64,000 nucleotides of DNA from assembly GCA_000998135.1 (NCBI GenBank), contig LCCV01000004.1, forward strand, positions 85,681 through 149,680, written 5' to 3'. The position numbers were made by a program, and so were the translations under genes. The DNA is from Parcubacteria group bacterium GW2011_GWA2_42_14. Its GTDB lineage: Bacteria > Patescibacteriota > Minisyncoccia > Sungbacterales > GWA2-42-14. The notes under the pieces are model-generated. The model searched no databases and was not told the DNA's origin. It saw only the letters and a program-made list of their open reading frames with translations. Of the stretch, positions 7,069-61,838 are shown piece by piece (position 1 is the first letter of the stretch; every line of letters begins with the position of its first letter).

Positions 7069-7084
7069 TAATTATTCAAAGGTC

Positions 7085-19504: not shown

Positions 19505-19590
19505 GTCATTCTGACCCTTAGCAATGCGAAGGGGAAGAATCTTAATGTTTTTGATGTTTTCGAATAGCCGAGATTCTTCACATTCGTTCA
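19505..19590. repeat. hairpin repeat family A copy
   Basis: gtcattctgac ... gagattcttcac. Confidence 0.6.
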
Positions 19591-19640
19591 GTTTGGTCGG
19601 TTTTTTGTTTATAGTTGCTTTATCGTGTAACGTATATTTT

Positions 19641-21365: not shown

Positions 21366-21454
21366 AAGCTGTCTTAGAAATCAATTATGCCATTGAACAA
21401 TTCTATAGAATTGTCCGGTTGGGTGTGATATGATTGGCTGTTTTTTTTAGAAAA

Positions 21455-21492
21455 TTCTTATTCTAATATTCTTGAGAATATTAGAATAAGAA
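21455..21492. promoter_or_regulatory. 18-bp perfect hairpin/palindrome ttcttattctaatattct-tg-agaatattagaataagaa
   Basis: Read directly. Lies between the helicase and the DUF559 gene. Confidence 0.55.
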
Positions 21493-21542
21493 AAATGGGC
21501 AGAAAGTTATTTCTTAAATTTCGTTAAAGCCGCATATCAATT

Positions 21543-22382: not shown

Positions 22383-22404
22383 ACGGCAAAAGCATAAGTG
22401 CTTG

Positions 22405-22516
22405 CCCCGTTAGAAGTTTAGCAATACGCCAATTACCGCACCACAATGTGAAGCGAAGCGGCTTTCGCCTTACATCTTTTGGAATAAAATACATCTTATT
22501 TAGATTCCTAACGGGG
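22405..22516. repeat. family B palindromic element (intergenic copy)
   Basis: ccccgttagaag ... cctaacgggg. Confidence 0.6.
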
Positions 22517-22637
22517 CTTGTATTGTTATTCATACTATGATAGTATTATATGGATCAATTCATGGGGGCTGTAAGAGAAGCGTAGTCGGGTTTTATTCTG
22601 CAGTATTCCCTTGTTTTGTGGCTTATTGGCTTAAAAT

Positions 22638-22853
22638 TTGAACATTATGCAAGAAGGAACAATTGCTCGGCTTGTTAGCGACCGTGGTTTTGGATTCATT
22701 GCCCGTGCCGGAGGGGAAAAGGATATCTTTTTCCATTCGAACGAGCTTAAGAATGTTGAATACAAAGACCTTAAGGAAGGCGACAAAGTTACTTTTGAAG
22801 TGACCGAAGGCCCCAAGGGGCTTAGTGCTACAAACGTTAACCGAGTGCAGTAA
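22638..22853 (+). CDS. cold-shock protein (CspA family)
   Basis: GTIARLVSDRGFGFI (RNP1-like) and DIFFH (RNP2-like). 71 aa. Confidence 0.85.
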   Translation: MNIMQEGTIARLVSDRGFGFIARAGGEKDIFFHSNELKNVEYKDLKEGDKVTFEVTEGPKGLSATNVNRVQ

Positions 22854-22856
22854 AAA

Positions 22857-22945
22857 TAAGAAATGCCACGGCATTTCTTGAATTCCGTCGCTCGCCCCAA
22901 ATGAAAACAAGTTTTCATCTGTGAGCTCGCTAGGAAATATAAAAG
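22857..22945. repeat. terminator hairpin (aagaaatgcc..ggcatttctt) plus repeat family F copy 2
   Basis: See the 5412-5480 copy. The inner hairpin shows compensatory changes. Confidence 0.5.
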
Positions 22946-23075
22946 CGCTCCGCGATGGCGGGGCGTTTTTATTTTTGGATTAGTTTTGGAAACGGAGCGT
23001 TTTTAATTGGCTGGCGCAAATGCTATAATTTATAATGTTTGGGCCGGTTGGTTCGGAGTCGAATTTTGCTAAATT

Positions 23076-23097
23076 AGGGAAGTCGGACTTCGCTAAA
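23076..23097. repeat. REP palindrome GGGAAGTCGGACTTCGCTAA (copy flanking RAYT 3' side)
   Basis: Palindromic GAAGTCGGACTTC core. Further copies at 23626-23649 (inside the RAYT gene) and a doublet at 23865-23900. Confidence 0.65.
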
Positions 23098-23108
23098 TTC
23101 ACTGTTGC

Positions 23109-23837
23109 TTATTCGATGACGATATCACGGATCGTTTCAGTATTGAGTCCTTGTAACCAATCAGTCATATCTTTTTTGTAATCGCTTGTTTTCCGGAGCC
23201 CATAGATTTTAGTAAGAAAATTTCTCTGGGTGATTGATGGAAAATTTTTAATCCCGATATAGTCTTGATAACTTGACCAGCGATATGATTCTAAAAATTG
23301 CAGCGCCTTTCTGACATTTGATATTTTTTTCTCCCGCCATTCTGGAAAAGACGTATCTAGGGGATTGAGATGGATATAGTGGGGGAGATATAACAGGTGT
23401 GCCTGGTTAAAGATATGAACTGCCTTAAATTTTCCCTGAAAGAGGGGGCCTACGCGTTGATACTTTGTGTTAAAATAGTTAGTGTATCCGGTTCCTATTT
23501 TTCGCATGAATTCGGTAATGCCGTTATCAGCTAATTGTCGGATTATGAAGTGATAGTGATTGGGCATGAGGCAAAAACAAAAGATTTCAACCAGCATTTT
23601 TCTCGGCATCTGTAATTTAGCGAAGTCGGACTTCGCTAAATTACCGGCAAATGGCCGTTTTCCATAGGAATCAAAATAATAACCGAGGTTTATGGCCGGA
23701 TTTTCATCATTAAATTCAAACATATCGTGAATAAAGCGGAAGTAATCAGATTGATTAGAAAATATATGGCGTTTTTCAACACCGCGGTTAAAGATGTGGT
23801 AGATTTCTCCTGTTGCAAATTGTGGTCTTTTTGCCAT
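23109..23837 (-). CDS. REP-associated tyrosine transposase (RAYT; IS200/Y1 transposase family)
   Basis: EIYHIFNRGVEKRHIF, HuH motif CLMPNHYHFIIRQ, YFNTKYQRVGPLFQGKFKAVHI, YIHLNPL. Contains an internal REP-encoded segment NLAKSDFAKLQ. Confidence 0.8.
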   Translation of the reverse strand: MAKRPQFATGEIYHIFNRGVEKRHIFSNQSDYFRFIHDMFEFNDENPAINLGYYFDSYGKRPFAGNLAKSDFAKLQMPRKMLVEIFCFCLMPNHYHFIIRQLADNGITEFMRKIGTGYTNYFNTKYQRVGPLFQGKFKAVHIFNQAHLLYLPHYIHLNPLDTSFPEWREKKISNVRKALQFLESYRWSSYQDYIGIKNFPSITQRNFLTKIYGLRKTSDYKKDMTDWLQGLNTETIRDIVIE

Positions 23838-45462: not shown

Positions 45463-46062
45463 ATGGAAAAATACTATATTTTAGACTTAATGAGATCCAA
45501 AAAGACTGTCTTCACTTTTAAAGACCTTATTTTGTTTTGGGGAAAATCTGACGTGAATTTTGTAAAGAAAAAAATTTACCGCTACGTGAAGGCGGGCAAA
45601 ATGAATTCTATCCGTAGAGGCATTTACTCCAAGGACAAGGACTATAATAAATACGAACTGGCTACAAAAATATATACACCCTCATATGTCAGCCTGGAGA
45701 CCGCGCTAGGCGCGTCCGGAGTTACTTTCCAGCTGTATGGTCAGATTTTTGTCGTATCATACACCACAAAGGAAATCGAGTGCGACGGACAGAAATATTC
45801 TTACAAAAAAATCAAAGATATCATTCTCACCAATCAAATCGGCATAGAGTCGAGGGAAAATTACAGCATTGCTTCGCCCGAACGCGCCTTTTTAGATGTT
45901 ATTTATCTTAACAAAGATTATCATTTTGATAATCTATCAGCTTTGAATTGGGAAAAAGTACGCGAAATTTTACCCATTTACGGCGGCAACAAACGAATGG
46001 CAAAAATGGTAAAAATGTACCACAAGGCGTTTTCCGCCGAAGTCACCAGTCCTTCGCAGTAG
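45463..46062 (+). CDS. AbiEi-family antitoxin/transcriptional regulator
   Basis: N-terminal AbiEi_4-like pattern (FTFKDLILFWGKSDVNFVKKKIYRYVKAGKMNSIRRGIYS). Positioned immediately upstream of the AbiEii gene. Confidence 0.55.
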   Translation: MEKYYILDLMRSKKTVFTFKDLILFWGKSDVNFVKKKIYRYVKAGKMNSIRRGIYSKDKDYNKYELATKIYTPSYVSLETALGASGVTFQLYGQIFVVSYTTKEIECDGQKYSYKKIKDIILTNQIGIESRENYSIASPERAFLDVIYLNKDYHFDNLSALNWEKVREILPIYGGNKRMAKMVKMYHKAFSAEVTSPSQ

Positions 46063-46127
46063 CTCTGCTACGGAGAATGGAGATCCGCCTCCGGCGGAAA
46101 GATTGCCAATTAGAAAATAATAACCGC

Positions 46128-46835
46128 ATGACTCTTAACACCGCAAAACATAAAAATATTCTTATAAAAATCCTCAAGGATATCTACACTGATCCTGCCA
46201 TCAGTCCTCTTTTGGGATTTAAGGGCGGTACAGCCGCTATATTTTTCTATAACCTTGACCGCTTTTCGATGGACTTGGATTTTGATTTGCTCAATTCAGA
46301 AAAGGAATACTTTGTGTTTGAACAAGTAAAAGCGGCCCTTGAAAATTACGGAAAATTAAAGCAGGTAAGAAAGAAAAGATTCAATCTTTTTTATATTCTT
46401 TCTTATGACGACAAAGACATTAATGCTCAAAATATTAAGGTGGAAATCAACCGCCGGGAATTTGGCTCAAAATATTCGGTGGAATCATTCCTCGGTATTT
46501 CTATGCAGGTAATGGTCAAAGAAGATATGGCCGCTCACAAACTTTGCGCCATGTATGAGCGAATCGGCAAAACCAACCGCGATATTTATGACGTACATTT
46601 TTTTCTTTCTCACGACTGGCCGGTTAATAAAAAGATTGTTGAGGACCGCATGGGAGTATCGTATGCGGAGTTTTTGAAAAAATGCATTGAGACAATGGAA
46701 AAGTTTGATGATAGCAACATTCTCTCCGGTATGGGTGAATTACTGTTGTCCGGGAAGCAAAAAGCGTGGGTAAAAGCAAAACTTAAGTCAGAAGTATTGT
46801 TCTTTCTGAAACTTGCTTTGGAAAAAGAAAAATAA
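46128..46835 (+). CDS. AbiEii/AbiGii-family nucleotidyltransferase toxin
   Basis: LLGFKGGTAAIFFYNLDRFSMDLDFDL matches the AbiEii signature (GGTAL…RFSEDIDF). Start ATG at 46128 chosen (MTLNTAKHK). Confidence 0.7.
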   Translation: MTLNTAKHKNILIKILKDIYTDPAISPLLGFKGGTAAIFFYNLDRFSMDLDFDLLNSEKEYFVFEQVKAALENYGKLKQVRKKRFNLFYILSYDDKDINAQNIKVEINRREFGSKYSVESFLGISMQVMVKEDMAAHKLCAMYERIGKTNRDIYDVHFFLSHDWPVNKKIVEDRMGVSYAEFLKKCIETMEKFDDSNILSGMGELLLSGKQKAWVKAKLKSEVLFFLKLALEKEK

Positions 46836-49490: not shown

Positions 49491-50012
49491 TTGAAAGTGG
49501 ATAATTTTAAACAGACAACAGAAATATCAGCTTCGTATCTTCGAAATTTTGTTTTCGGGGTTGAAGATAGCTTGGTTTCAACCGCGGGGCTTCTTTCGGG
49601 TATTGCTATTACGGGGATGCCGAGAAATAGTATTTTTGTTGCCGGAATTGTTCTTATTTTTGTGGAGGCCTTTTCCATGGCTGTCGGCAGTTTTCTTTCC
49701 GAACGCTCGGCCGCCGAATATATTGAAAAGAAAGAGGTTTCTGCTTCTGACTCGGTTCTTGACGGAATAATAATGTTTTTTTCTTATTTTATTTCAGGTT
49801 TTATTCCTTTGTTTCCTTATATTATAATGAATACTGAAAACGCCTTTTGGTTTTCAATCGTACTTTCTCTTATTGCCCTCTTTCTTTTAGGCGTTGTGGG
49901 AGCAAAAATTTCCGGCCGGAATATTTTTAAAAGCGGTTTTCGCATGGCCATTATCGGCGGAATCGCGATTGGTGTGGGAATAACCGTAGGCCGTATGGTT
50001 AATAATTTATGA
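49491..50012 (+). CDS. VIT1/CCC1-family iron/manganese transporter
   Basis: VEDSLVSTAGLLSGIAITG…VEAFSMAVGSFLSERSAAEY and a C-terminal glycine-rich transmembrane segment (AIIGGIAIGVGITVG) typical of the VIT family. Confidence 0.6.
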   Translation: MKVDNFKQTTEISASYLRNFVFGVEDSLVSTAGLLSGIAITGMPRNSIFVAGIVLIFVEAFSMAVGSFLSERSAAEYIEKKEVSASDSVLDGIIMFFSYFISGFIPLFPYIIMNTENAFWFSIVLSLIALFLLGVVGAKISGRNIFKSGFRMAIIGGIAIGVGITVGRMVNNL

Positions 50013-50163
50013 AGTTTCCGGACCGTTCAGAAACCGTTATTTTGAGTGTTAACAAAGAGTCGGGTTACCACCTAGACCGGATTCTTCGCGAATGGCCGGC
50101 TATAGGGAATGGCTGAAATGAGTCCCTTTGCATACAGTATAGTTGATGTAGTATTCTTAAAGT

Positions 50164-50973
50164 ATGAAACCAAATAAATTACAACAGGTCGCGCTGGCGG
50201 TTTTTTCGCTAGCCGGTACCGCCCTAATGGGCTATCTTCTCTCGCTCAAGTTCTTTTCTAAAGCCTCGTCGTTTTGCGAGCTGGGCGAAGGTTTTTCGTG
50301 CGACCTTGTCAACCAGAGTATCTACTCGGAAATTTTCGGAATTCCCGTATCACTCCTGGGCCTGCTTTATTTTCTCGGGGTGCTGGTTGCGGTTTTGTGG
50401 CGGTATAATGAGACTACGCTAAAATCCATTCTCTTTTTTTCCATCGTATTTTTAGGGCCGTCGCTTTACCTAAGTTATATTGAATTTTTTGTGTTAAAGA
50501 GTATCTGCGTTTTTTGTGAAGCATCAAAAGTTTTGATACTTGCCGTAATTGCCGTATCCGGATACGCACTAAGAGGGAGGACCGGCAGGCAGTTCGTGAT
50601 ATCGGCTATGGCAGTTGGACTTGTTTTTGCCGGAGTCACTTATTTTATTCATGCTAACGCCGGACCCGGGGAAAAATATAACGCTCTGGCTCAGTGCCTT
50701 GATGAGAAAGGGTACAAAGTGTACGGCTCCATAACTTGCGCGTCGTGCGCGAGACAAAGAGCCATGTTCGGCGATGCGTATAAATTCATAGAGGAGATTG
50801 AGTGCGATCCGCGAAATCCGCATAATGTCGTGGAACTCTGTATTGCCAAAAACATAAAAAAGACACCTACATGGATTCAGGAGGATGAAGCCGGAGGCGA
50901 GCTTTACCGGTTTGAGGCAGGCATAGTGTCTCTGGAGAATCTCTCCCGCGTGTCAGGGTGTTCACTGGAGTAA
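50164..50973 (+). CDS. VKOR-domain / thioredoxin-like-domain fusion protein
   Basis: N-terminal VKOR features (loop Cys pair FCELGEGFSC, transmembrane CVFC). C-terminal Trx-like domain with CASC. Confidence 0.6.
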   Translation: MKPNKLQQVALAVFSLAGTALMGYLLSLKFFSKASSFCELGEGFSCDLVNQSIYSEIFGIPVSLLGLLYFLGVLVAVLWRYNETTLKSILFFSIVFLGPSLYLSYIEFFVLKSICVFCEASKVLILAVIAVSGYALRGRTGRQFVISAMAVGLVFAGVTYFIHANAGPGEKYNALAQCLDEKGYKVYGSITCASCARQRAMFGDAYKFIEEIECDPRNPHNVVELCIAKNIKKTPTWIQEDEAGGELYRFEAGIVSLENLSRVSGCSLE

Positions 50974-51056
50974 ATTTAAGTTAAGGCGAAGTTGTGAAGA
51001 CCGGCCCTGAATTTAGGTGCGCCCCTCAATAATTTCAAGGAGTAAAATAAAATCTT

Positions 51057-51773
51057 ATGGCTATAGATAATTTAACCATCCCCATTATCGTCAGCGCGGC
51101 ACTGGTTGACAGCATCAACCCCTGCGTTTTAGGCGTGCTTATTTTTTTGCTGGCATTCATGACTAGCGCTTTCCGCAGCCGGACGCGGATGCTTCTCGGA
51201 GGGCTTTTCTATAGTTTGGTGGTATACGTTACTTATCTTGCGCTCGGTTTAGGAATTTTGAGGATAACCGTGTCCATCGGGGTTTCCACCGCTTTCTACT
51301 GGGTGGCCGCCCTGGTGGCTATTGCGGCCGGGCTTTTTGAAATAAAAGATTTTTTCTGGTACGGAAAGGGGTTTTCTTTGCAGATGATTCCCGGAGCGTC
51401 AGAACGCATCAAGTATTACACCTCGAGAATCGCGGCAATTCAGGAAAATCGTCCCGGCTTGAGCTTGCTTTTTATCGGTCTCTTGGGGGTTTTTGTCGTT
51501 TTGGTGGAATTGCCCTGCACCGGAGCGCCGTATTTTGCGGTTTTGGCCCTGTTGGCCAAAGGAGCGTATGCAGATGCGGTTCCCTTTTTGCTTCTGTATA
51601 ATTTTATTTTTGTGCTTCCGTTGCTCGCGGTGGTCGCGGTCGCTTATTTTGGAACCTCATCCGAACAAATGGAGGAATGGCGTAAGCGCCATCGGGGTCT
51701 TATGCGATTGGTTATAGGAACTTTTCTCATTGCTCTGGGTGTTTTCATGCTTTACTCGATTCAAGGGTTTTAA
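51057..51773 (+). CDS. CcdA/DsbD-transmembrane-domain family protein
   Basis: DSINPCVLGVLIF and ELPCTGAPYF Cys motifs. 6 transmembrane segments. Paralog of 28087-28878. Confidence 0.6.
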   Translation: MAIDNLTIPIIVSAALVDSINPCVLGVLIFLLAFMTSAFRSRTRMLLGGLFYSLVVYVTYLALGLGILRITVSIGVSTAFYWVAALVAIAAGLFEIKDFFWYGKGFSLQMIPGASERIKYYTSRIAAIQENRPGLSLLFIGLLGVFVVLVELPCTGAPYFAVLALLAKGAYADAVPFLLLYNFIFVLPLLAVVAVAYFGTSSEQMEEWRKRHRGLMRLVIGTFLIALGVFMLYSIQGF

Positions 51774-51878: not shown

Positions 51879-54497
51879 TTGATTACCCCAAGGTTAAATG
51901 CCAAATGGCACGAACTCCCGATTAAGGATTTGCTGCAGGAATTCGGGTCCAATTTAGAAACCGGACTGGCGGATGACGAGGTCGGGCGAAGGCGGGCAGA
52001 GTTCGGACCGAACGAACTTCCGAAAGGAAAAAAGCTCCACTGGTGGGAGTTTTTTTTCCGACAGTTCAAAAATCCACTTATTTTCATTTTGCTCGCGGCC
52101 GGAGCGATTACTTGGTGGCTTGCCGAGTATCTGGATACCATTGTCATATTTCTCGCGGTGCTGGTGAATGTTGCTATCGGATTTTGGCAGGAATTCCGGT
52201 CCAACCGCATTTTTGAAAAACTTCAGGCGATTGTGGCGGTGCGTTCGCGCGTGCGCAGAGACGGTAAAATGCGGGAGATCAACGCGAAAGACCTTGTTCC
52301 CGGCGACATAATTCTCCTTTACGCGGGAGTGAAGGTTCCGGCTGATGCCCGGATTCTTGAAGCGCGGCGATTGGAAGTGAATGAGGCGCTTCTTACCGGA
52401 GAATCTCTTCCGGTCAAGAAGACGGTTTTGGATCTTTCCGGTAGAACGGCGCTCGCCGATAGAAAAAATATGGTTCATGCGGGAACTGTGGTGGAGCAGG
52501 GTGAGTGTATTGCTCTGGTGGTAGCAATCGGAGAGAATACGGAACTCGGCGAGATCGCTCGCCTTACCGCCTCGGTGGAGGAGGAGTCCACCCCGCTTCA
52601 GGAGCGTTTGGCGCGCCTCGGTAAAATCATCGCGGGTTTTGTTCTGGCCGCGGCGTTTTTCGTAATCCTCGTCGGAGTTTGGGAGGGAAGAGCATTTGTG
52701 GAGATGTTTACGGTAGGAGTCGCGGTGGCGGTTGCCGCGATCCCCGAAGGGCTTCCTGCCGCACTCTCGGTGGTGCTCGCCGTAGCTTCGCAAAGGATTT
52801 TTGGACGAAAGGGACTGGTTAAAACTCTCATTGGTGCCGAAACTCTCGGCTCCACAACCGTAATTTGTACGGATAAGACCGGAACTCTTACCGAAGGAAT
52901 CATGCAGGTGGAGAAGCTCGTTGAAGCCAAGGACCCTAAACGTAGCGCTTTAGCACTCGCACTCGCGAACGAAGCGGCCGTCATGGACCGGGGAGATATC
53001 AGGGGAGAAGCAACCGATTGCGCGAAGCTTAAATATTTTTTGGAAGAGGGCGGGGGTAATCTTGACGAAGCGCTCAAGGAATACCCGCGCCTGGCCATAC
53101 TCCCGTTTGACGCGGACGAAAAATATATCGCGTCGTTCCACGGAGGAAAAGAGCGCCTGATAAACCTATTTGTCACGGGCGCTCCGGAAATTCTTATTGA
53201 ACGTTCGACTCTGTCGGAGCGGGAAAAAGGGCGAATGCGGGAGATAGTGGATTCTTTTGCCGCCCGGGGATACCGGATGATTGCTACGGCCGAGCGCGGT
53301 ATTGTGCGCAGTGCCTCGCGGATAGATCCGGATGACATCGCTGGGCTTCGTCGGGAGGTAGGAGGGCTCTTGCTTTCCGGACTTGCGGCAGTCCGCGATC
53401 CGGCGCGCCCCGACGTAAAAGAATCTTTGAAAATCACGCGCCAAGCGGGCATTCGCGTCCTTATGGTAACCGGGGACCATAAGCTTACGGCGCGCGCCAT
53501 CGGCCAGGATTTGGGATTCAGTGCTGATCCGTCGGCTCTTATTGACGGCCCGGAATTGGATCAATTGTCGGATGAGGAATTCGCCCGACGGATCCGGAGC
53601 GTGGAAATATTTTCGCGCGCTTCCCCTAGGCACAAGATGCGGATTATAAACGTCTTAAGGATAGAGGGACATGTGACGGCCATGACCGGGGACGGCGTAA
53701 ACGACGCTCCGGCTCTTAAGGCGGCGGATGTCGGGGTCTCGGTCGGCGACGGAGCGGACGTTACCAAAGAGGCGGCGGACCTTGTGCTTTTGGATGACTC
53801 GTTCTCGACCATTACCTCGGCCATCCGCGAAGGCAGGATCGCTTTTGATAACATGCGCAAAGTCGCCGTTTTCCTGCTGATGGGTTCCTTTACTGAATTT
53901 ATTCTCGTCGTAACGTCGCTCGTCTTGGGAATCCCGCTTCCCGTAACCGCGGTGCAGATTCTCTGGGCGAATATTATTGAGGACGGGTTTCCTAATTTTG
54001 CTTTGGCTTTTGAGCCCGGCGAGAAGGATATCATGGAGCGCCGGCCATTTAAACGTAAAGAGCCGATACTTGATCGGCTCGGAATGGCTTTTGTATTTAT
54101 TCAGGGGATCCTTACCGACCTTATTTTGGTGGGAGTATTCCTCTGGCTCTTCTATAATTCTTCCTACACCCTCGAACATCTCCGGACTATTATACTTGCC
54201 GCTCTTACTACTGATGCGCTTCTTTTGGTCTTTGTCCTTAAAAATCTGCGCGAGCCGCTGTATAAAATCGAGTTTTTCAGCAATTACTATCTTCTTTTGG
54301 CTGTTATTTTGGGATTTACCGCGATGTTTGCGGCAATTTACGCTCCGCCTCTTCAGTGGCTTCTCGGCACCGTTCCTTTAAGCGCGGGGGATATAGCGCT
54401 CGTCCTCGGCATGGGTCTTTTGGAGGTGGGGCTCGCCGAGGGTATCAAATGGTGGTTCAGACGCGGTGGATATTTTAGGGTGCAAACAGCTTCTTAA
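51879..54497 (+). CDS. cation-transporting P-type ATPase (type IIA-like, Ca2+/Mg2+-ATPase family)
   Basis: N-terminal cation-ATPase-N-like region. TGES. ICTDKTGTLTEG. MTGDGVNDAPALKAADVGVSVG. 10 transmembrane layout. 872 aa. TTG start at 51879. Confidence 0.8.
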   Translation: MITPRLNAKWHELPIKDLLQEFGSNLETGLADDEVGRRRAEFGPNELPKGKKLHWWEFFFRQFKNPLIFILLAAGAITWWLAEYLDTIVIFLAVLVNVAIGFWQEFRSNRIFEKLQAIVAVRSRVRRDGKMREINAKDLVPGDIILLYAGVKVPADARILEARRLEVNEALLTGESLPVKKTVLDLSGRTALADRKNMVHAGTVVEQGECIALVVAIGENTELGEIARLTASVEEESTPLQERLARLGKIIAGFVLAAAFFVILVGVWEGRAFVEMFTVGVAVAVAAIPEGLPAALSVVLAVASQRIFGRKGLVKTLIGAETLGSTTVICTDKTGTLTEGIMQVEKLVEAKDPKRSALALALANEAAVMDRGDIRGEATDCAKLKYFLEEGGGNLDEALKEYPRLAILPFDADEKYIASFHGGKERLINLFVTGAPEILIERSTLSEREKGRMREIVDSFAARGYRMIATAERGIVRSASRIDPDDIAGLRREVGGLLLSGLAAVRDPARPDVKESLKITRQAGIRVLMVTGDHKLTARAIGQDLGFSADPSALIDGPELDQLSDEEFARRIRSVEIFSRASPRHKMRIINVLRIEGHVTAMTGDGVNDAPALKAADVGVSVGDGADVTKEAADLVLLDDSFSTITSAIREGRIAFDNMRKVAVFLLMGSFTEFILVVTSLVLGIPLPVTAVQILWANIIEDGFPNFALAFEPGEKDIMERRPFKRKEPILDRLGMAFVFIQGILTDLILVGVFLWLFYNSSYTLEHLRTIILAALTTDALLLVFVLKNLREPLYKIEFFSNYYLLLAVILGFTAMFAAIYAPPLQWLLGTVPLSAGDIALVLGMGLLEVGLAEGIKWWFRRGGYFRVQTAS

Positions 54498-54521
54498 ACA
54501 GATATAATATATATGAATGGC

Positions 54522-54667
54522 GACCCCGCTCCAATTTTGCGGGATATTCTGGGGCAAGCCGCTTCGCCCGACGAGGGTTGTCCTATGCGGACACGCGGCT
54601 TGCGAGAGGATATGGCTATAGGGCGAAGGAAGCCAAGTTAAAATATAGGCAAAATTGGAGCGGGGTG
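54522..54667 (+). ncRNA. candidate structured RNA / long imperfect palindrome (19-bp closing helix, nested 9-bp helix)
   Basis: gaccccgctccaattttgc (54522-54540) pairs with gcaaaattggagcggggtg (54649-54667). An internal gcaagccgc / gcggcttgc helix. Lies between the ATPase and the small Cys-rich ORF. Confidence 0.35.
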
Positions 54668-54720
54668 CTCATATTTATACCTAAAATTTGTTCGCCCGCT
54701 GCTCCAAATTTTAGACAAAT

Positions 54721-54888
54721 ATGGCAGAAGAAAAACTTTTTAAATGCGCCAAGTGCGCGAAAGAAAAAAAGAAAGAAGAGGGGATGTATGTGCTTGAAGG
54801 CACGGCTTTTTGTTGCAAAGAATGTTGCGGTGTTCCGTCAAAGAACGAGCGCAAAGAGAAGAAGGCGAACGTTTGCGAATTCTGCTAA
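54721..54888 (+). CDS. small 8-Cys protein (55 aa; zinc-ribbon/metallothionein-like)
   Basis: MAEEKLFKCAKCAKEKKKEEGMYVLEGTAFCCKECCGVPSKNERKEKKANVCEFC. Pattern CxxC…CCxxCC…CxxC. Not in the ORF track because under 60 aa. Confidence 0.4.
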   Translation: MAEEKLFKCAKCAKEKKKEEGMYVLEGTAFCCKECCGVPSKNERKEKKANVCEFC

Positions 54889-54912
54889 GCAGCCAATTTA
54901 GCAAAATGACTC

Positions 54913-56151
54913 ATGGAAAAGGTGAAGTATCTAATAATAGGAGGCGGCATTGCCGGCACAACTGCCGCGGAAACAATCCGGCAGAATGACCCTGTCGGAA
55001 CTATTGCCATTGTGTCTGATGAGCCATATCGGCTGTATTCGCGTATCATGCTTTCTAAGCCGAATTTTTTTCTGGAGAAAATTCCTTTTGAAAATGTGTG
55101 GTTGAAAAAAGATTCGTGGTATACGGAAAATAATATAATGCTGCTCGCCCCCAAAAAAGCCATTTCACTTGATACCGTAAAAAAAGAAGTAAAGCTTGAT
55201 GACGGGCAAGTCATCCGTTATGAAAAATTGCTCCTGGCGGTAGGGGGATGCGCGCGCCAGTGGGGAATTAAGGGCAGTGAAAAAAAAGGAATATTTTATA
55301 TTCGGACCCTTGACGACGCTAAGGCAATAATTAGCGCGGTAAAATCATCAGAAAACGCCGTGGCCATCGGAGGGGGGTTTATAAGTTTTGAAATGTGCGA
55401 TATGCTGAAATTGGCGGGAATTAACGTATCACTTATTTTGCGGGAATCATATTTTTGGGAGCCGCTGCTTGATGAACAGTCCGGCAGAATGATTGAGCGG
55501 GCCCTGGAAAAAGGCGGTGTTAAAATTTTTTATAATTCGCAGGTTAAGGAAATAATTGGCGCAGATAAGGTAGAGGAAATTGTATTGGATAACGGCGAAA
55601 AGATTTCCTGCAATATGCTCATGGTCGGTATCGGGGTGGTTTGCCCTTTTGGATGGGTTCAGGCAGGCGGTATTTCCGTTAATCGCGGAATATTGGCCAA
55701 CGAGTATCTGGAAACCGATAAACCGGATATTTGGACGGCCGGGGATTCGGCGGAGTTTAACGATATTATTTTGGGGGAGAGGGTGCAGCTCGGCAACTGG
55801 GTTAACGCTCAAATGCAGGGAAGAATTGCCGGTTTGAATATGTTAGGAAAGCGCAATCCGTTTAAATTGGTATCGTTTTACACCACCCAGGGGTTCGGTA
55901 TAACGATTGCTTTTGTTGGCGACGTAAAACCCGGACAGGATCGTTTGGTAATCGGACGCGGTTTACCGGATTCCGGCTCTTATGGAAGAATTCTTGTTAA
56001 AGACGGAGAGATCATGGGCGCTACGCTTATCAACCGCACTTCGGAACTGGGCGCGATTTCCAAACTTATTGAAAAAGATATAAAAGTTTCCGGACATGAA
56101 AAGGAACTTGGCGACGCTAATTTTGACCTTAAGAAATTAATCAATGGATAA
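54913..56151 (+). CDS. FAD-dependent pyridine nucleotide-disulfide-family oxidoreductase (rubredoxin/ferredoxin-reductase- or AIF-like), probable hydrogenase diaphorase partner
   Basis: N-terminal FAD motif YLIIGGGIAGTTAAE. Second Rossmann AVAIGGGFISFEMCDMLKLAG. TAGD motif. No redox-active Cys pair. Stop overlaps the hydrogenase small-subunit start. Confidence 0.65.
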   Translation: MEKVKYLIIGGGIAGTTAAETIRQNDPVGTIAIVSDEPYRLYSRIMLSKPNFFLEKIPFENVWLKKDSWYTENNIMLLAPKKAISLDTVKKEVKLDDGQVIRYEKLLLAVGGCARQWGIKGSEKKGIFYIRTLDDAKAIISAVKSSENAVAIGGGFISFEMCDMLKLAGINVSLILRESYFWEPLLDEQSGRMIERALEKGGVKIFYNSQVKEIIGADKVEEIVLDNGEKISCNMLMVGIGVVCPFGWVQAGGISVNRGILANEYLETDKPDIWTAGDSAEFNDIILGERVQLGNWVNAQMQGRIAGLNMLGKRNPFKLVSFYTTQGFGITIAFVGDVKPGQDRLVIGRGLPDSGSYGRILVKDGEIMGATLINRTSELGAISKLIEKDIKVSGHEKELGDANFDLKKLING

Positions 56152-56632
56152 TGAACATAAGAAAATTAAAATCGGGTGGTTCACTTTTTCTTGCTGTGAG
56201 GACAATACTATTGTGATGACGGAAATTATGAACGACCATTGGCAGGAGTGGAAAAAACTTTTTGATTTCAGGCACGCCAATGTTCTTAAATCTAAAAATA
56301 TCCTTGATGAGTTGGATATCGCTTTTGTAGAGGGGGCGATAGCTTCGGAAAAGCATGCGGAGAAACTCCGTGAAATAAGGGAAAAATCAAAGAAATTGGT
56401 GGCGGTGGGCGCTTGCGCCGTTGTCGGGATGCCGGCGGCCCAGAGAAACTATTTTAACGAACAGCAAAAGCAGGAAATAGAATTTTTAGTCGCGCGTTTT
56501 GCGGCACTTCCCAAAGTGCTTAAGGTTTCCGATGTCGTGAAAGTGGACGCCGAAGTGGGAGGATGCCCCATGGACCCTGATAAATTTTTGACGGCCGTTG
56601 CCGGTCTCGTTGAAGAGTTAAAAAAGGTTTAG
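56144..56632 (+). CDS. [NiFe]-hydrogenase small subunit, minimal (proximal 4Fe-4S cluster only; HoxY/delta-like)
   Basis: 162 aa. No Tat signal. Four Cys in the expected spacing (FSCCED, GACAV, GGCPMDP). Directly upstream of the large subunit. Confidence 0.6.
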   Translation: MDNEHKKIKIGWFTFSCCEDNTIVMTEIMNDHWQEWKKLFDFRHANVLKSKNILDELDIAFVEGAIASEKHAEKLREIREKSKKLVAVGACAVVGMPAAQRNYFNEQQKQEIEFLVARFAALPKVLKVSDVVKVDAEVGGCPMDPDKFLTAVAGLVEELKKV

Positions 56633-56643
56633 TTTTAAACACT

Positions 56644-57939
56644 ATGCACACAGTTGATTTAGATTTAAATTTGGATCGTCTGACAAAAGTTGAAGGTTCA
56701 GCTTCGCTTGAAATAAGGGTGCGCGGTGGAAAAGTTGAATACGCGCGTTTTAAAATTAATGAATACAAGCGTTTTTTTACCAAGGCCTTGGAAGGAAAAC
56801 CGATTATAGCCCTTCCTCAGCTTTTGTCGCGAATCTGCGGCACTTGTTCCAATGCCCATATTCTTGCTTCTATCGAGGCCTGCGAACACGCTTTGGATAT
56901 TGAGCCCTCGGAGCAGACAAAAATTTTGCGCGATTTGACCATGGACGGTTTGAATATCCGCGACCATGCGCTTCATTTGTATCTTTTTTCCATGCCCGAT
57001 ATATTCGGGAAAGACGCGTTTCTTGATTTTGATGAGAATAATCCTGTGGAGCACCAGATGCTTCATGACGGTTTTGAAATAAAAGCCGCGGGAAATTTTC
57101 TTGCTTCTCTTATTGCCGGAAGAAGCGTTCACGCGACCTATCCCGTGGTGGGAGGATTTACGCATTTTCCGGAAAAAGACGGGATTGAAGAAGCGGTTAA
57201 AAAACTTGAAGCCGCGCGTCCGGCGGTGTTGCGGCTGATAGATGTTTTTAAAAATTGTCCTTTCAGTTTTGACCGTCAAACCAAATTTATGGCTCTTGTG
57301 CCCAAGGACAAATACGGTTTTATTGACGGATGCATTCAGACCGGCGAAGGGGAGTGCATAGAGGAAAGGGACTATCGCGAGCATCTGGAGCATGTTGTTT
57401 TGCCTTATTCACAGGCATCGGCCTATAAGCATTCGCGCGGTTCTTATATGGTAGGGGCTCTGGCGCGAGTTAATCTTGCTAAACATCTTTTACATCCTAA
57501 AACCAAAGAAATGCTTGCGGATACTCTGAGTATTTTTCCTTCAACGGACGTATTCCGCAACAATTTGGCGCAAGCCGTGGAAATTCTCCATTGCCTTGAT
57601 AGCGCGCTGGAAATACTGAAGACCTTTGAGTTCAAGGCGGAGCCGGTAATTAAAAAACCGCCTCGCGAGGCGGTCGGCGTGGGAGTGGTGGAAGCTCCCA
57701 GAGGAACGCTCTATCACCAGTATCATTTGGCAAAAAGCGGCATAGTTACCGAGGGCGAAGTAATTGTGCCGACCGGACAAAACCAGATAAATATAGAAGA
57801 GGACATATTTGCGCTTGTGCAAAAATTGCTTCCGTCGGCGGAAAAAGAGCAGATTCAATTTGAAGTTGAAAAGCTTATCCGGGCGTATGACCCTTGCATG
57901 AGCTGTGCCGCGCATTTTCTTAAAGTAAAGTGGAATTAA
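56644..57939 (+). CDS. [NiFe]-hydrogenase large subunit (group 3-like, cytoplasmic)
   Basis: N-terminal L1 motif RICGTCSNAH. C-terminal L2 motif DPCMSCAAHF followed by a short extension. Both verified in the DNA. Confidence 0.85.
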   Translation: MHTVDLDLNLDRLTKVEGSASLEIRVRGGKVEYARFKINEYKRFFTKALEGKPIIALPQLLSRICGTCSNAHILASIEACEHALDIEPSEQTKILRDLTMDGLNIRDHALHLYLFSMPDIFGKDAFLDFDENNPVEHQMLHDGFEIKAAGNFLASLIAGRSVHATYPVVGGFTHFPEKDGIEEAVKKLEAARPAVLRLIDVFKNCPFSFDRQTKFMALVPKDKYGFIDGCIQTGEGECIEERDYREHLEHVVLPYSQASAYKHSRGSYMVGALARVNLAKHLLHPKTKEMLADTLSIFPSTDVFRNNLAQAVEILHCLDSALEILKTFEFKAEPVIKKPPREAVGVGVVEAPRGTLYHQYHLAKSGIVTEGEVIVPTGQNQINIEEDIFALVQKLLPSAEKEQIQFEVEKLIRAYDPCMSCAAHFLKVKWN

Positions 57940-58309
57940 TGATGGCGGAAATTTTTTCCAGCGCTTCTTTTTCGGGTATGTCGGCGGGAACGCCGATTAT
58001 TTTTATTTTTTTGAGTTTGCCGAGTTTTTGAAGAAATTTCAGCTGCGACCATAAATCAAAGTCATGAAGTGATATGTGAGGATGATTCGTAAAATTTTTC
58101 AGGTCAGAAAAAATTTTGACTTCTTCAATGCCTCGAACGGTATCAATTATAGTCAGCTCTTCCGGTATTTCAAATTCTTCATTCGGGTCTTTTATTTCAA
58201 ACCGGATTTTGGGAAAAAGCCGCTTGAGTTCAGGAAGAACGCGAAGCGGTAAAGAATCAAATTCAAGCTCTTGATTGCCGAAAATAAGGATGTGTTTTTT
58301 ATTCTCCAT
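57920..58309 (-). CDS. hydrogenase maturation endopeptidase (HycI/HoxW family), putative
   Basis: ILIFGNQELEFDSLPLRV (GN..xxDDxxG-like), IIDTVRG (DA-like) and LHDFDL (His) fit the maturation-protease pattern. Convergent with the large subunit and overlaps it by ~20 nt. Confidence 0.5.
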   Translation of the reverse strand: MENKKHILIFGNQELEFDSLPLRVLPELKRLFPKIRFEIKDPNEEFEIPEELTIIDTVRGIEEVKIFSDLKNFTNHPHISLHDFDLWSQLKFLQKLGKLKKIKIIGVPADIPEKEALEKISAIINSTLL

Positions 58310-58387: not shown

Positions 58388-58669
58388 ATGTCACAGCCAT
58401 TATTGCCGTGGGATTCTCCTGAAGATGCCAACTATCCCCAACTAGTCTGGCGAAGCAAGCTTGATGACATATATCTCATTGAAGTGCGCCACACTAACGG
58501 TTGTGGCGGCAAGTTATTTGTGTTTGACCACAACAATAATGATCAGGAAATTTTTTCTATGGATGTAGATTTATTGTATGGAGCAATATTAGGACCCGAT
58601 GTGGATGATGTCCAAGAATGGCAGGAAAAAGTACTGGACTTCATCGACAATACCTATAACAAACAGTAA
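58388..58669 (+). CDS. hypothetical protein
   Basis: 93 aa, acidic. No recognisable domain. AT-rich context. Confidence 0.3.
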   Translation: MSQPLLPWDSPEDANYPQLVWRSKLDDIYLIEVRHTNGCGGKLFVFDHNNNDQEIFSMDVDLLYGAILGPDVDDVQEWQEKVLDFIDNTYNKQ

Positions 58670-59058
58670 CAACCTCTCTCGTCTAGCTGGCAAACGCCGG
58701 CTTTTTCTTATCTCTATACCCCATGACACCTTTTATATTCTTGACTATAGTATATTGATATGATAAGTTTTGGTAAGTTCCTGAACACATAGACGGAGGT
58801 TCGCCATGTTTATAGGTACTCATTGTGGTAAAAAATCTGTTTATTGGAATGAAGGTGAACGTTCTACTTTACAGCGAATTATTGAGATTGCAAAAGTGGA
58901 ATTTCCTGATATTCCATATGAACAATTGGTTCTTGAGGCCGATTTAGATAATGACGGTAAGAGTATTTGTGCCGGAACAATACTTCATCAGTTATAGCCC
59001 TATATGGGCTTTTTTCTTATATTTCTTCCACCGCGATAGTTATAAGAATGTTGGTGGT

Positions 59059-59838
59059 TTAAATGGTTTGATTGGCGAGCTCAAGATGGCGCAGGGTGTA
59101 TTTTTTAAGCATTCCTGCCTGCCTTGGCGTTATTTTTTCGCAAATCACTCCCCAGTGAATGGAAACGAGGTCGCCTGTTTTTAATTCTTCAATGTCTCTG
59201 TCCGATTCCAAACTAATGGCGATTTTGGTTGTTTGGGGACTGCCTAAAATAAGTTTTCCGTCCCGATATAATAAAGGTTCGTGTTTTACCATCAGGAATG
59301 GTCCGTTTCTGGCTGTAATTTTTCCCCAGCTTATGCGGCAGGAATCCATGGATTCAAGAGTATGTTCCCGCTCAAGATGGCCGGTTCTTTTCCAGATATC
59401 CAGTACGTGAAAAGAGTGATTGGGAACTCCGCCTTTTTTTATTTTATTGGCTACTACTTCAAAAGATTTGTTACCTATTTTCTTTTTAATTTCTTGTTCT
59501 TCAAGAAGATGGCGCCAGAATTTCTTTTTTTCAACCGTTTCCAACAATTCGTTTCCCAGCCAATAGGCCTCCACTACGCGATTATCAAACGGGTCGCGGA
59601 TGCTGTTGGCATCAGCAATAAGCCGGAGATACGGATACATTGTTTTAAAGGCCTTAAGCAGGATTTCAAGTCCCGGGTCGCCCGCCCTCTCTTTAATGTA
59701 TGAAAAAATTTCCCGATTGGCATCGGGACCGCAATAGTGAAGCCGGTTCGGTCCGAAAGCATATCGGCTACACATTAAGAGGCCGTCATAGAGATGCTGT
59801 GGAGATTCTGCGGCTGAATTTTGAGTAAATATTTTCAA
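59059..59838 (-). CDS. hypothetical protein (conserved-looking, no family assigned)
   Basis: 259 aa. The N-terminal 17 codons overlap the EamA gene end, so the true start may be an internal Met. Confidence 0.35.
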   Translation of the reverse strand: MKIFTQNSAAESPQHLYDGLLMCSRYAFGPNRLHYCGPDANREIFSYIKERAGDPGLEILLKAFKTMYPYLRLIADANSIRDPFDNRVVEAYWLGNELLETVEKKKFWRHLLEEQEIKKKIGNKSFEVVANKIKKGGVPNHSFHVLDIWKRTGHLEREHTLESMDSCRISWGKITARNGPFLMVKHEPLLYRDGKLILGSPQTTKIAISLESDRDIEELKTGDLVSIHWGVICEKITPRQAGMLKKYTLRHLELANQTI

Positions 59839-60709
59839 TTGTTTTTGAAATAATCAGGATTCCCGCAATCATTATCACCGCCTGTATTAATGTTTTGCCG
59901 GGAAAAATATGCGTAACAAAAATTGAATTAAGAATTGCCGTGATGGGCGCCGCTATGACAAGGACGGAACTAACAACCGTTGCCGGAGCGTATTTAAGAG
60001 CGGCATACCAGGTTGTTACGTAACCGAAAAGCAATGCGCCGGTTAAAATCGCCCATCCGGCTTGTTCTGTTGACGCCGGAATAAGGGCGGAAATTTTTCC
60101 GGTGATTGCAAGAAACAGAAGAAGAAACAAAGAACCGAAAAACATTCTTGCCCAGCCGGCAATAGACGGCGAAATTTCTTTAAGAACTTTTTTGGCGATT
60201 ATATTTTCAACTGCCCAAAACAAAGTTGCTAAAAGCGCTAAAACGGATCCGGTTCCGAATTTCCAGTTTGCGGGCGAATCAAACATAAAAATTCCTAAAA
60301 ATAATATTCCCAGGGCGGCAAACTGAATTGAACTTATCCGTTCTTTAAGAAATGGATAGGAAAATAAAGCGACCCATAAAAACAAGGTTTTGTGGATGAA
60401 AGCCGCTTCTGTGGCCGAAATCATGGTAAGCGATTTGAAAAATAGCAGAAAGGGAATGGAGCCGCCTATAATCCCAATGAGGATAAGTTTGAGCCACAGC
60501 CTTCGAGAAAGTCCTTTTAGTTCCGGAATTTTTCGCAATAGCATAATCAGGCCGGTAAGAAGAACGGCGGTTGCGATATTTTTTGCCGTAGTATAAGCAT
60601 AAGCGTCTTTCCAGAACGCTACCCCGAATTTATTGATAAATACGGCAAAACCGCTGATTAGCGCCGTAAGAAAAGCGAGATTAACTCCTTTAGATAATGA
60701 ATTTTCCAT
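59786..60709 (-). CDS. EamA/DMT-superfamily transporter
   Basis: 10 predicted transmembrane segments in two EamA-like halves. Confidence 0.7.
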   Translation of the reverse strand: MENSLSKGVNLAFLTALISGFAVFINKFGVAFWKDAYAYTTAKNIATAVLLTGLIMLLRKIPELKGLSRRLWLKLILIGIIGGSIPFLLFFKSLTMISATEAAFIHKTLFLWVALFSYPFLKERISSIQFAALGILFLGIFMFDSPANWKFGTGSVLALLATLFWAVENIIAKKVLKEISPSIAGWARMFFGSLFLLLFLAITGKISALIPASTEQAGWAILTGALLFGYVTTWYAALKYAPATVVSSVLVIAAPITAILNSIFVTHIFPGKTLIQAVIMIAGILIISKTIENIYSKFSRRISTASL

Positions 60710-61030: not shown

Positions 61031-61507
61031 ATGACAAAGTCGCAAAAAGTATCATTGTTTTTGCTTCGCGTGTCTTTGGGCTGGCTTTACTTTTATGCCG
61101 GTATTACCAAAGTTATAAATCCCGAATGGTCGGCGGCGGGATACCTTAAGGGGGCAAAAATTTTTGCCGGATTTTATCAGTGGCTGGCAGGTTCCGATAT
61201 TTTACCGGCAGTTAATTTTATTAATGAGTGGGGGTTGCTACTTCTCGGCGTTTCCCTGATTTTGGGTATTGCTGTGCGTTTGTCGTCTATGCTCGGCGTG
61301 ATGCTGATGATGCTTTATTATATTCCGATTCTTGATTTCCCGTATCCCAATCCGCATTCTTATTTGGTCGATGAACATATTATTTATGCGTTTGTTTTAA
61401 TTTTGTTTGCGAGTTTAAGGGCCGGCCGTATCTGGGGTTTGGAAAATTGGTGCTCGGGTCTTCCGATTTGTTCCAGATTTCCGAAACTTCGAGATTGGCT
61501 TGGTTAA
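61031..61507 (+). CDS. DoxX-family membrane protein
   Basis: LLRVSLGWLYFYAGITKV… DoxX N-terminal pattern. 4 transmembrane segments. Confidence 0.6.
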   Translation: MTKSQKVSLFLLRVSLGWLYFYAGITKVINPEWSAAGYLKGAKIFAGFYQWLAGSDILPAVNFINEWGLLLLGVSLILGIAVRLSSMLGVMLMMLYYIPILDFPYPNPHSYLVDEHIIYAFVLILFASLRAGRIWGLENWCSGLPICSRFPKLRDWLG

Positions 61508-61512
61508 GTCTT

Positions 61513-61838
61513 ATGAAATTTGGCCTAATTTTGCAATCAAATAAACCTGAACATGTGTGGAACACGTTCCGTTTCGGAATTACTGCGCTTAAGGGCGGCA
61601 TCGAGTGGAAATTTTTTTGATGAATGAGGGTTCGGAGTTAGATACTATTCCTGGTAGCAAAAATTTTGATATTTCCGCGAAAGTGGCGGAATTCAAAGGG
61701 TTGATGGGCGAGATTTATGCCTGCGGCACTTGTCTTGAATTGCGCGGTAAAGGTGAAAGCAATGTATGTCCGGTTTCCACAATGTCCGACCTGCTTAAAA
61801 TGGTCGAGGGCTCGGATAAAGTTTTAGTTTTTGGTTAA
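61513..61838 (+). pseudogene. DsrE/DsrF(YchN)-like gene interrupted by frameshift at a T7 homopolymer
   Basis: ORF1 MKFGLILQSNKPEHVWNTFRFGITALKGGIEWKFF* (61513-61620). ORF2 in another frame from 61605 …LMNEGSELDTIPGSKNF…GEIYACGTCLELRG…SDKVLVFG. Together about 107 aa matching the DsrE-like fold pattern. Junction at gaaatttttttgatg. Confidence 0.45.

Follow-up and report, generated by a model that had tools for sequence, protein, structure and literature searches.

The locus studied here encodes a two-subunit [NiFe]-hydrogenase beside a flavoprotein gene and a convergent protease gene. It lies in a 64-kb stretch of DNA (the window), which was traced to a Candidatus Sungbacteria genome of the candidate phyla radiation (CPR) through a protein match of the hydrogenase large subunit. 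Judged from its sequence, the locus is an instance of the CPR hyd2 clade, a group-3b-related cytoplasmic [NiFe]-hydrogenase whose architecture is already known, though biochemically uncharacterised. We propose, at about an even chance, that it is a ferredoxin-linked hydrogenase which would share one ferredoxin pool with a 2-oxoacid:ferredoxin oxidoreductase (OFOR), with the flavoprotein as a ferredoxin reductase, and with Fe-S cluster assembly. The feature coordinates are collected in Table 1.

The hydrogenase as a predicted member of the hyd2 clade

The large subunit was found to carry the L1 motif RICGTCSNAH and the L2 motif DPCMSCAAH(F), which together supply all four Cys ligands of the Ni-Fe site, and these residues (C65, C68, C418 and C421) were invariant in 12 of 12 diverse relatives. 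After L2 the protein ends in a 7-residue tail, FLKVKWN, of which FLKVxW is kept across homologues. It was 100% identical to a protein of Candidatus Sungbacteria bacterium RIFCSPLOWO2_12_FULL_41, and hundreds of Patescibacteria/CPR relatives were obtained at about 70% identity. When species-representative genomes were scanned with an alignment query (a single-sequence query gave none), at least 539 species-level genomes were found to carry hyd2, essentially all of them Patescibacteria/CPR. Gene calling and family clustering were carried out in 80 hyd2 loci, the best of these at least 539 confirmed relatives, and all 80 came from CPR-type metagenome-assembled genomes. The relatives all had short small subunits, and we infer the placement on the hyd2 branch from the 60-76% identity which the large subunit shows to hundreds of such sequences across CPR classes.

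The best PDB matches of the large subunit were the alpha subunits of group 3b soluble hydrogenase I (SHI; 9nez, 5yxy), which aligned full-length with about 200 bits, as against 156 bits for group 3c and 114 bits for group 3d; group 3a was also behind 3b. The top NCBIfam models were ShyA (254 bits) and HydA (208 bits), both of which missed their equivalog cutoffs of 700 and 880. With the NADP-coupled group 3b sulfhydrogenases (P. furiosus SHI and T. kodakarensis Hyh) the locus shares the L1/L2 motifs, the short C-terminal tail, the cytoplasmic site and a dedicated endopeptidase. However, SHI is a tetramer (alpha-beta-gamma-delta) whose beta and gamma subunits are AsrA/AsrB-like, whereas the hyd2 locus has neither. 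About 45 ORFs (open reading frames) of the window were scanned with Pfam and NCBIfam for Hyp, beta/gamma and NuoE/F types, and neither beta/gamma (AsrA/AsrB-like) nor NuoE/F-type subunits were found among them; beta/gamma subunits were likewise absent from the recurrent families of the 80 hyd2 loci.

The small subunit showed only four conserved Cys (C17, C18, C91 and C141) across 71 homologues with a median length of 167 aa, and since these are the only conserved ones, it is predicted to carry the proximal [4Fe-4S] cluster alone. No twin-arginine N-terminus was present. Of the P. furiosus delta subunit (266 aa) only residues 9-157 were covered by the alignment with the small subunit; SHI delta subunits, at about 260 aa, run some 100 residues beyond the part homologous to the 162-aa, single-cluster hyd2 protein, and this group 3b extension carries further Fe-S clusters. 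A canonical four-subunit 3b layout with a 291-aa delta, unlike hyd2, was present in locus L151. The small subunits (179-189 aa) of the group 3d enzyme HoxFUYH (5xf9) and of the bifurcating enzyme HydABCSL (7t2r) are likewise reduced to the proximal cluster, so that in all of these enzymes, hyd2 included, a separate Fe-S protein must take over the electrons directly. HoxFUYH and HydABCSL use for this NuoE/F/G-type modules, which are missing at the hyd2 locus, and their large subunits are less similar to ours (114-146 bits, as against about 200 for 3b). The motifs, the Cys pattern and the domain scans thus agree with the original prediction, made from the letters of the window, of a cytoplasmic [NiFe]-hydrogenase with a proximal-cluster small subunit and no canonical diaphorase.

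That prediction had also considered the architecture possibly uncharacterised, and in this it was anticipated by the description of hyd2 in 2020 (PMC7304191). In that study the 3b-related hydrogenases of CPR bacteria fell into two clades, hyd1 and hyd2; the hyd2 small subunit was 'consistently truncated', with a mean of 164 aa, there was no proximal beta/gamma, a PF07992 flavoprotein lay near hyd2, an Fe-S family lay near a subset, a hypC-homologous family was present, and the function of hyd2 was called uncertain (Jaffe et al. 2020, BMC Biol 18:69). We found no structural difference between the present locus (small subunit of 162 aa) and hyd2 as described there. The published account does not include the ferredoxin-reductase pairing, the supercluster with OFOR, acetyl-CoA synthetase and NifSU, the protease fold or the DUF6390/EamA unit that are reported below. 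In the later literature that we searched, the name hyd2 was not used for CPR, and DUF6390 was not mentioned.

The junction of the two subunit genes appears to be an insertion hotspot. A DHO_dh-family (dihydroorotate-dehydrogenase-like) gene was inserted between hydS and hydL in relatives with 93% identity (L085:1099-2217, L086:1564-2685 and L007, about 6893-7987), and other insertions, for example of a Bro-N domain gene, were seen at the same place in L039, L040 and L046. DHO_dh as a recurrent hydrogenase partner was ruled out, as it occurred only in L007, L085, L086 and L087.

A ferredoxin reductase-family flavoprotein and the ferredoxin encoded with it in relatives

The flavoprotein upstream of the small subunit is, from its domains and nearest relatives, classed as a ferredoxin-NAD(P)+ reductase-family enzyme. 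It matched PF07992 (E = 3e-51) together with PF00070, PF14759 and PF18267, and it showed two GxGxxG motifs (GGGIAG and GGGFIS) of the FAD/NAD(P)H Rossmann type as well as the segment PYRLYSRIMLSK, which we take to be the FdR-type motif. No redox-active Cys pair was present, and no Cys was conserved above 82% across the homologues. The best NCBIfam models were PadH (214 bits, cutoff 475), HcaD and NirB-N, all under their equivalog cutoffs, and the best PDB relatives were the ferredoxin reductases ArR (3lxd), PuR (3fg2), BphA4 and PdR, with AorC (8c0z_E) also scoring high. With the ferredoxin, putidaredoxin and rubredoxin reductases, AorC and PadH the flavoprotein shares the two-Rossmann FAD/NAD(P)H fold, the Reductase_C domain and the lack of a redox-active disulfide; it differs from that family in that it stays below every NCBIfam cutoff and has no P450, dioxygenase or tungsten enzyme nearby. 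AorC is the FAD subunit of the NAD-reducing tungsten aldehyde oxidoreductase AorABC (10.1101/2023.01.23.525143), for which NAD serves as acceptor (10.1101/2023.01.23.525143, PMC10413684).

The position of the flavoprotein gene was determined by searching up to 8 kb around hyd2, for which 71 of the 80 loci were informative and nine contigs were too short to tell. Orthologues of 44-69% identity were found within this distance in 52 of the 71. In 27 they were directly upstream of the small subunit, in 19 they were upstream but behind an opposite-strand block of OFOR and ADP-forming acetyl-CoA synthetase (ACD) genes, and in six they were elsewhere in the locus. The gene was absent within 8 kb on both sides in nine loci, and in a further ten it was missing from the visible upstream sequence, of which there were at least 3 kb. 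The direct and the OFOR/ACD-separated layouts occupied separate halves of the neighbour-joining tree of the large subunit. The linkage of flavoprotein and hydrogenase, whose lack in other genomes the original prediction had named as a refutation, was therefore kept in most of the informative loci.

A second gene was tied more closely to the flavoprotein. A ferredoxin of about 90 aa (Fer4_15/Fer4_13) stood 0-163 nt upstream of it in about 41 of the 52 loci, which is nearly every locus where this slot was visible, and among the 80 loci it was never found beside hyd2 without the flavoprotein. It had exactly three conserved Cys in the pattern C-x5-C...C-P, as is typically seen in ferredoxins of the [3Fe-4S] type, with which reductases of this family usually pair. 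No ferredoxin of the three-Cys type was present anywhere in the window. L087, a relative of the window with 80% identity, carried a normal Fer4_15 ferredoxin in the slot upstream of the flavoprotein and shared the 8-nt overlap of flavoprotein and small-subunit genes.

Homologues of the flavoprotein were also gathered separately from metagenomes, and their neighbourhoods were then inspected. Orthologues with at least 44% identity were mostly preceded by the ferredoxin and followed by hyd2 and/or OFOR/ACD; two at 54% identity had none of ferredoxin, hyd2 or OFOR/ACD nearby. In 12 metagenomic loci (within L110-L139, for example L111, L117, L118 and L122), reductase homologues of 32-40% identity formed a NifS-NifU-ferredoxin-reductase cassette without a hydrogenase, which suggests a dedicated electron supply for NIF-type Fe-S assembly. 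Ferredoxin and reductase are apparently a tighter and older unit than flavoprotein and hyd2. Mirror-tree correlations, taken against the large subunit, were 0.70 for the small subunit, 0.72-0.79 for OFOR/ACD, 0.58 for the flavoprotein, 0.60 for DUF6390 and 0.52 for the protease; these values fit co-inheritance of the whole block, with no special flavoprotein signal. The Pyr_redox_2 gene of L151 was rejected as a precedent, since there the canonical 3b enzyme is followed by a rubredoxin-reductase and rubrerythrin pair.

The conserved neighbourhood of hyd2

Clustering of the genes in the 80 loci recovered the small subunit in 71 and the flavoprotein in 51. The most frequent companions on the protease side were the convergent 125-aa protein (the protease, 48 loci), DUF6390 (45) and the EamA permease (28), with a 150-aa family, c10, in 18 loci. 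On the other side were the alpha-gamma (32 loci) and beta (26) genes of OFOR, the ferredoxin (30 loci, about 41 by tblastn), ACD (23), and NifS, NifU and NifU-C (10, 14 and 8 loci, respectively). In its full form the layout begins with NifS, NifU, NifU-C, ferredoxin and flavoprotein, followed in some loci by ACD, OFOR-beta and OFOR-alpha-gamma, in this order and on the opposite strand; then come the two subunit genes, small before large, with c10 behind them in some loci, and last the protease, DUF6390 and EamA genes, again on the opposite strand. Of the 51 flavoprotein-bearing hyd2 loci, 21 had NifS/NifU/NifU-C genes directly ahead of the ferredoxin-reductase pair, and OFOR adjoined hyd2 in ten loci without a flavoprotein in range. 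The other conserved members of the neighbourhood use or make ferredoxin or Fe-S clusters. The minimal module of the original prediction was therefore drawn too narrowly for the conserved cluster, which extends to DUF6390 and EamA and in relatives normally includes a ferredoxin.

A proposed ferredoxin-linked hydrogenase and the alternatives to it

In the proposed mechanism, the electron partner of hyd2 would most likely be the soluble, single-cluster three-Cys ferredoxin, probably of the [3Fe-4S] type, because hyd2 is without beta/gamma subunits and its small subunit no longer has the domain in which the medial and distal clusters reside. OFOR would reduce this ferredoxin hub while ACD makes ATP from acyl-CoA, the 412-aa flavoprotein would equilibrate ferredoxin with NAD(P)H, and NifS/NifU may draw on the same ferredoxin for Fe-S assembly. 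The hydrogenase would then vent electrons as H2 or take them up from it, and its link to NAD(P)H would be indirect, through ferredoxin, without the flavoprotein being a diaphorase subunit. In the window the ferredoxin gene would have been lost from its usual slot, now taken by a P-type ATPase and its 8-Cys companion, and is presumably encoded elsewhere in the genome.

Several points weigh against this proposal. The flavoprotein is immediately upstream of the small subunit in 27 loci, the window included, and is often translationally coupled to it, as a stoichiometric complex would predict. PadH, the best NCBIfam model, and AorC, high among the PDB matches, are integral FAD subunits of Fe-S complexes and not free reductases. 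The [3Fe-4S] ferredoxins are often too positive in potential for efficient proton reduction. For this organism the proposed partner is unseen, the 64 kb being without any such ferredoxin. The clustering, in small CPR genomes which trade gene blocks laterally, may reflect co-transfer and not a shared mechanism, and the architectures are clade-specific.

Alternatively, the flavoprotein, with or without the ferredoxin as a bridging Fe-S subunit, would be a true structural subunit of hyd2, with electrons running from NiFe through the proximal cluster, the ferredoxin cluster and FAD to NAD(P)+, a possibility that we consider doubtful. It would then stand in for the lost medial and distal clusters and for the beta/gamma diaphorase, and hyd2 would be an NAD(P)H-linked hydrogenase of novel composition; this is the model of the original prediction with the ferredoxin added. 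Besides the adjacency in 27 of the 71 loci and the 8-nt overlap in both the window and L087, this reading draws on the relatives PadH and AorC, FAD subunits which are fed by ferredoxin-like subunits and reduce NAD+, and on the flavoprotein's co-variation with the large subunit, which is as good as that of the maturation proteins. The short small subunits of group 3d and HydABCSL (5xf9_C, 7t2r_E), as far as we are aware, always dock another Fe-S subunit. On the other hand, flavoprotein and hydrogenase form separate, opposite transcription units in 19 loci, and in about 19 more the flavoprotein is absent within range; the two 54% orthologues and many homologues of 32-40% have no hydrogenase nearby; no fusion of flavoprotein or ferredoxin to either subunit was seen in about 80 loci or among the 120 matches listed; and the window has the flavoprotein and no ferredoxin. 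The separated loci, the loci without a flavoprotein, the hydrogenase-free cassettes and the mirror-tree value of 0.58 argue against an obligate flavoprotein-hydrogenase complex. The direct partnership of flavoprotein and hydrogenase suggested in the original prediction is weakened by the first three of these observations and by the ferredoxin pairing, while the genetic linkage stands; the coupling of H2 to NAD(P)H which it proposed is still plausible, probably by way of ferredoxin and not by direct docking.

In a bolder version, hyd2, the three-Cys ferredoxin and the flavoprotein would be a new class of NAD(P)H-linked complex, in which the free-standing, single-cluster ferredoxin would take the place of the medial and distal clusters while the diaphorase is replaced by an AorC/PadH-like FAD subunit, matured with DUF6390 as a new HypC-family chaperone coupled to an EamA-type permease; this, too, is tentative and on balance unlikely.

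It is quite improbable, in our judgement, that the ferredoxin-reductase pair serves Fe-S biogenesis (from NAD(P)H through reductase and ferredoxin to NifS/NifU) and lies beside hyd2 by co-location or co-transfer, the true hydrogenase partner being another protein. ISC-type Fe-S assembly needs a ferredoxin and its reductase, and the directly upstream NifS/NifU/NifU-C genes of 21 of 51 hyd2 loci, as well as the 12 hydrogenase-free metagenomic cassettes, are what such a role would leave. However, orthologues of at least 44% identity are mostly beside hyd2 and/or OFOR, in about 30 hyd2 loci no NifSU genes are in range of the ferredoxin-reductase pair, and hyd2 would still need an electron partner, for which no other conserved candidate was found nearby.

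The hyd2 enzyme is widespread and is probably the main route of H2 exchange in many ultra-small, host-dependent CPR fermenters, and its electron partner decides the part of CPR bacteria in models of subsurface H2 and carbon, as producers venting electrons from ferredoxin or NAD(P)H or as consumers. To enzyme engineers it is of interest because, among soluble [NiFe]-hydrogenases, its core would be the simplest known. The architecture itself was published in 2020; what the synteny adds is a set of concrete partner candidates, namely the ferredoxin, the reductase, OFOR/ACD and DUF6390.

Maturation of the hydrogenase

The convergent ORF at the end of the large-subunit gene was hardly recognisable by sequence (HycI E = 0.0065; PF01750 16.7 bits against a cutoff of 23). 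Its AF2 (AlphaFold2) model, built from a 41-sequence alignment with a predicted local distance difference test (pLDDT) value of 84.7, gave HybD (5ija, 1cfz) and HycI (5zby) as the top PDB matches in Foldseek (E = 4e-6, probability 1.0, TM [template modelling] score 0.62-0.64). The invariant residues were G11-N12, D18, D56 and H82, of which D18, D56 and H82, with G11-N12 invariant beside them, presumably correspond to the Glu/Asp-Asp-His metal site of HybD. From this model the ORF is predicted to be a HybD/HycI-fold maturation protease. The HycI/HoxW-like endopeptidase of the original prediction is thus confirmed by the predicted structure, and the gene is present and convergent in 48 loci.

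DUF6390 usually follows, in the order protease, DUF6390, EamA, all opposite to the hydrogenase genes, and it was fused to the EamA permease in L003 and P0218. It was confined to CPR, as 1859 homologues were found and those among the matches listed were all from CPR. The invariant residues were C36, H141, C167, H228 and C233. The AF2 model (pLDDT 81.9) showed a helical N-terminal domain and a C-terminal beta-barrel of the oligonucleotide-binding (OB) type. Foldseek matched the model to HypC (2z1c_B; probability 1.0, TM score by target 0.70, E = 0.02), with other OB folds scoring close behind. The Pfam match to HupF_HypC was weak (E = 0.013), and in an hhalign comparison with genuine CPR HypC, also weak, only the GDxVxxHxG segment aligned. 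C167 and H228 occupy the positions of the essential Cys and of the conserved His (xVHxG segment) of HypC; in HypC that Cys is N-terminal, whereas C167 is internal. As modelled, DUF6390 probably contains a HypC-like domain, and with moderate confidence we regard it as a candidate hyd2-specific chaperone. The c10 family is a shorter paralogue of DUF6390 (hhalign 95%, E = 2e-8), located just downstream of the large subunit in its 18 loci (for example L070:5228-5686). When sequences of the PDB were searched with profiles of the protease, DUF6390 and c10 alignments, only chance matches were returned.

In the window the usual adjacency of protease and DUF6390 is broken by two small plus-strand ORFs of 93 and 63 aa (58388-58997). 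No convincing Pfam match was obtained for either (chance level only for the 63-aa ORF). A tblastn search with the 93-aa ORF gave no homologue in any of the loci, not even in the 93%-identical L085, where other small ORFs occupy this position.

As had been noted originally, hypA-F genes were absent from the window, which was confirmed by both the scan of about 45 ORFs and a Hyp motif scan. Nor were hyp genes found in 79 of the 80 hyd2 neighbourhoods. In the remaining one, L048, a hypC gene (PF01455, 9e-26), a hypD gene (PF01924, 3e-115) and the start of a hypE-like ORF adjoined the hyd2 protease gene (L048:9931-11921), with no DUF6390 within the 2.6 kb available downstream; because of these genes, canonical Hyp machinery is taken to be present in at least some hyd2 organisms. 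Three other candidates were rejected: the 'MHE' HypA-like matches of L013 and L016, which overlap the end of the large-subunit gene on high-GC contigs and look spurious; the multi-CxxC HypF-like match of L080, at 116 aa far too short for HypF; and the 813-aa family c26, considered as HypF, which is a ClpB-type AAA protein. Maturation would presumably be carried out by canonical Hyp proteins encoded elsewhere together with the local protease, and possibly the HypC-like DUF6390.

The losses of beta/gamma and of the medial and distal clusters, the lack of hyp genes in the window and in nearly all neighbourhoods, and the uncertain function stated by Jaffe et al. (PMC7304191) could also be taken to mean that hyd2 is a degenerate, sensory or repurposed [NiFe] protein left after the loss of its partner subunits, but we consider this very improbable, since diverse CPR lineages show no change at the four Ni-Fe Cys, at those of the proximal cluster or at about 130 further positions, the dedicated protease is retained in 48 loci, hypCDE adjoins hyd2 in L048, and the 60-76% identity which the large subunits keep from one class to another points to strong purifying selection.

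Layout of the locus and the 8-Cys protein

All five ORFs of the original prediction were recovered at the positions it had assigned (the first five rows of Table 1), including the 8 nt shared by the flavoprotein stop and the small-subunit start; the start coordinate which it gave to the module, 54522, matched no feature boundary. The protease ORF, convergent with the large-subunit gene, overlaps its end by 20 nt, and the EamA permease is the first gene of the convergent EamA-DUF6390-(protease) unit.

Table 1. Genes of the hyd2 locus and its flanks in the window
Feature	Coordinates	Strand	Basis or remark
8-Cys small protein, 55 aa	54721..54888	+	real family, 24 cluster representatives; not part of the hydrogenase module
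Ferredoxin-NAD(P)+ reductase-family flavoprotein (predicted), 412 aa	54913..56151	+	Pyr_redox_2 and Reductase_C/Rubredoxin_C
Truncated [NiFe]-hydrogenase small subunit, 162 aa	56144..56632	+	PF01058 (Oxidored_q6), E = 4e-20
[NiFe]-hydrogenase large subunit, 431 aa, group-3b-related, assigned to the hyd2 clade	56644..57939	+	PF00374 (NiFeSe_Hases)
Putative HybD/HycI-fold maturation endopeptidase, 129 aa	57920..58309	-	AF2 model and Foldseek
DUF6390 protein	59059..59838	-	PF19927, E = 2e-63
EamA/DMT-family permease	59786..60709	-	92.5% identical to the L085 gene annotated PF00892
P-type ATPase	51879-54497		upstream of the 8-Cys ORF

The 8-Cys protein had been counted as part of the hydrogenase module, which was not upheld: no homologue was found in the 80 hyd2 loci, and its homologues follow a P-type ATPase. 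The family is of about 55 aa with 7-8 conserved Cys in the arrangement C-x-K-C ... FCC-x2-CC ... C-E-F-C, the last at the C-terminus, and no Pfam or PDB match was obtained. On three independent contigs (L089-L091) a spacer of 33 nt separated the gene from a preceding P-type ATPase orthologous to the one at 51879-54497 (52% identity), and the surroundings of the pair were free of hydrogenase genes. Because of this linkage without a hydrogenase, the 8-Cys protein is assigned, from sequence comparison, as a companion of the upstream P-type ATPase, sitting in the slot where relatives carry the ferredoxin, and its function may be to bind metal as a small partner of this pump, which is of the Ca/Mg type. 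Its absence from hyd2 loci, the ATPase linkage and the want of a Pfam or PDB match ruled it out as a ferredoxin or rubredoxin substitute feeding the flavoprotein.

Between the ATPase stop and the 8-Cys start (54515-54725) the window has an intergenic element rich in secondary structure. In it, a perfect inverted repeat of 17 nt (54524-54540 / 54650-54666) closes a multibranch structure of about 110 nt, and a second hairpin reaches the start codon; the minimum free energy was -89.1 kcal/mol, as against -64.4 ± 4.6 for shuffled sequences (z = -5.4). The element had no Rfam match, by which a riboswitch upstream of the 8-Cys ORF was rejected, no second copy in the window and none in the 172 fetched loci. 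It looks like an insertion or a lineage-specific leader, as the homologous junction in L089-L091 is only 33 nt.

Other features of the window

Three regions (31596-34058, 49491-51773 and 61031-61838) were rich in genes of metal and redox homeostasis, among them a heavy-metal P-type ATPase with an HMBD domain, a VIT1 iron transporter, a VKOR-family protein, DoxX and a small DsrE-like protein; a membrane protein among these genes gave only a weak, sub-threshold SfLAP match. Genes of mobile or defence type, namely a PIF1-like helicase, a DUF559/REase-like protein, an IS200-like transposase and an AbiEii toxin, were present at 19524-23837 and 45948-46835. Finally, a YcaO cyclodehydratase gene followed by a methyltransferase-nitroreductase (dehydrogenase-like) fusion gene was found at 1773-4815, an arrangement reminiscent of the biosynthesis of azole-forming RiPPs (ribosomally synthesised and post-translationally modified peptides).

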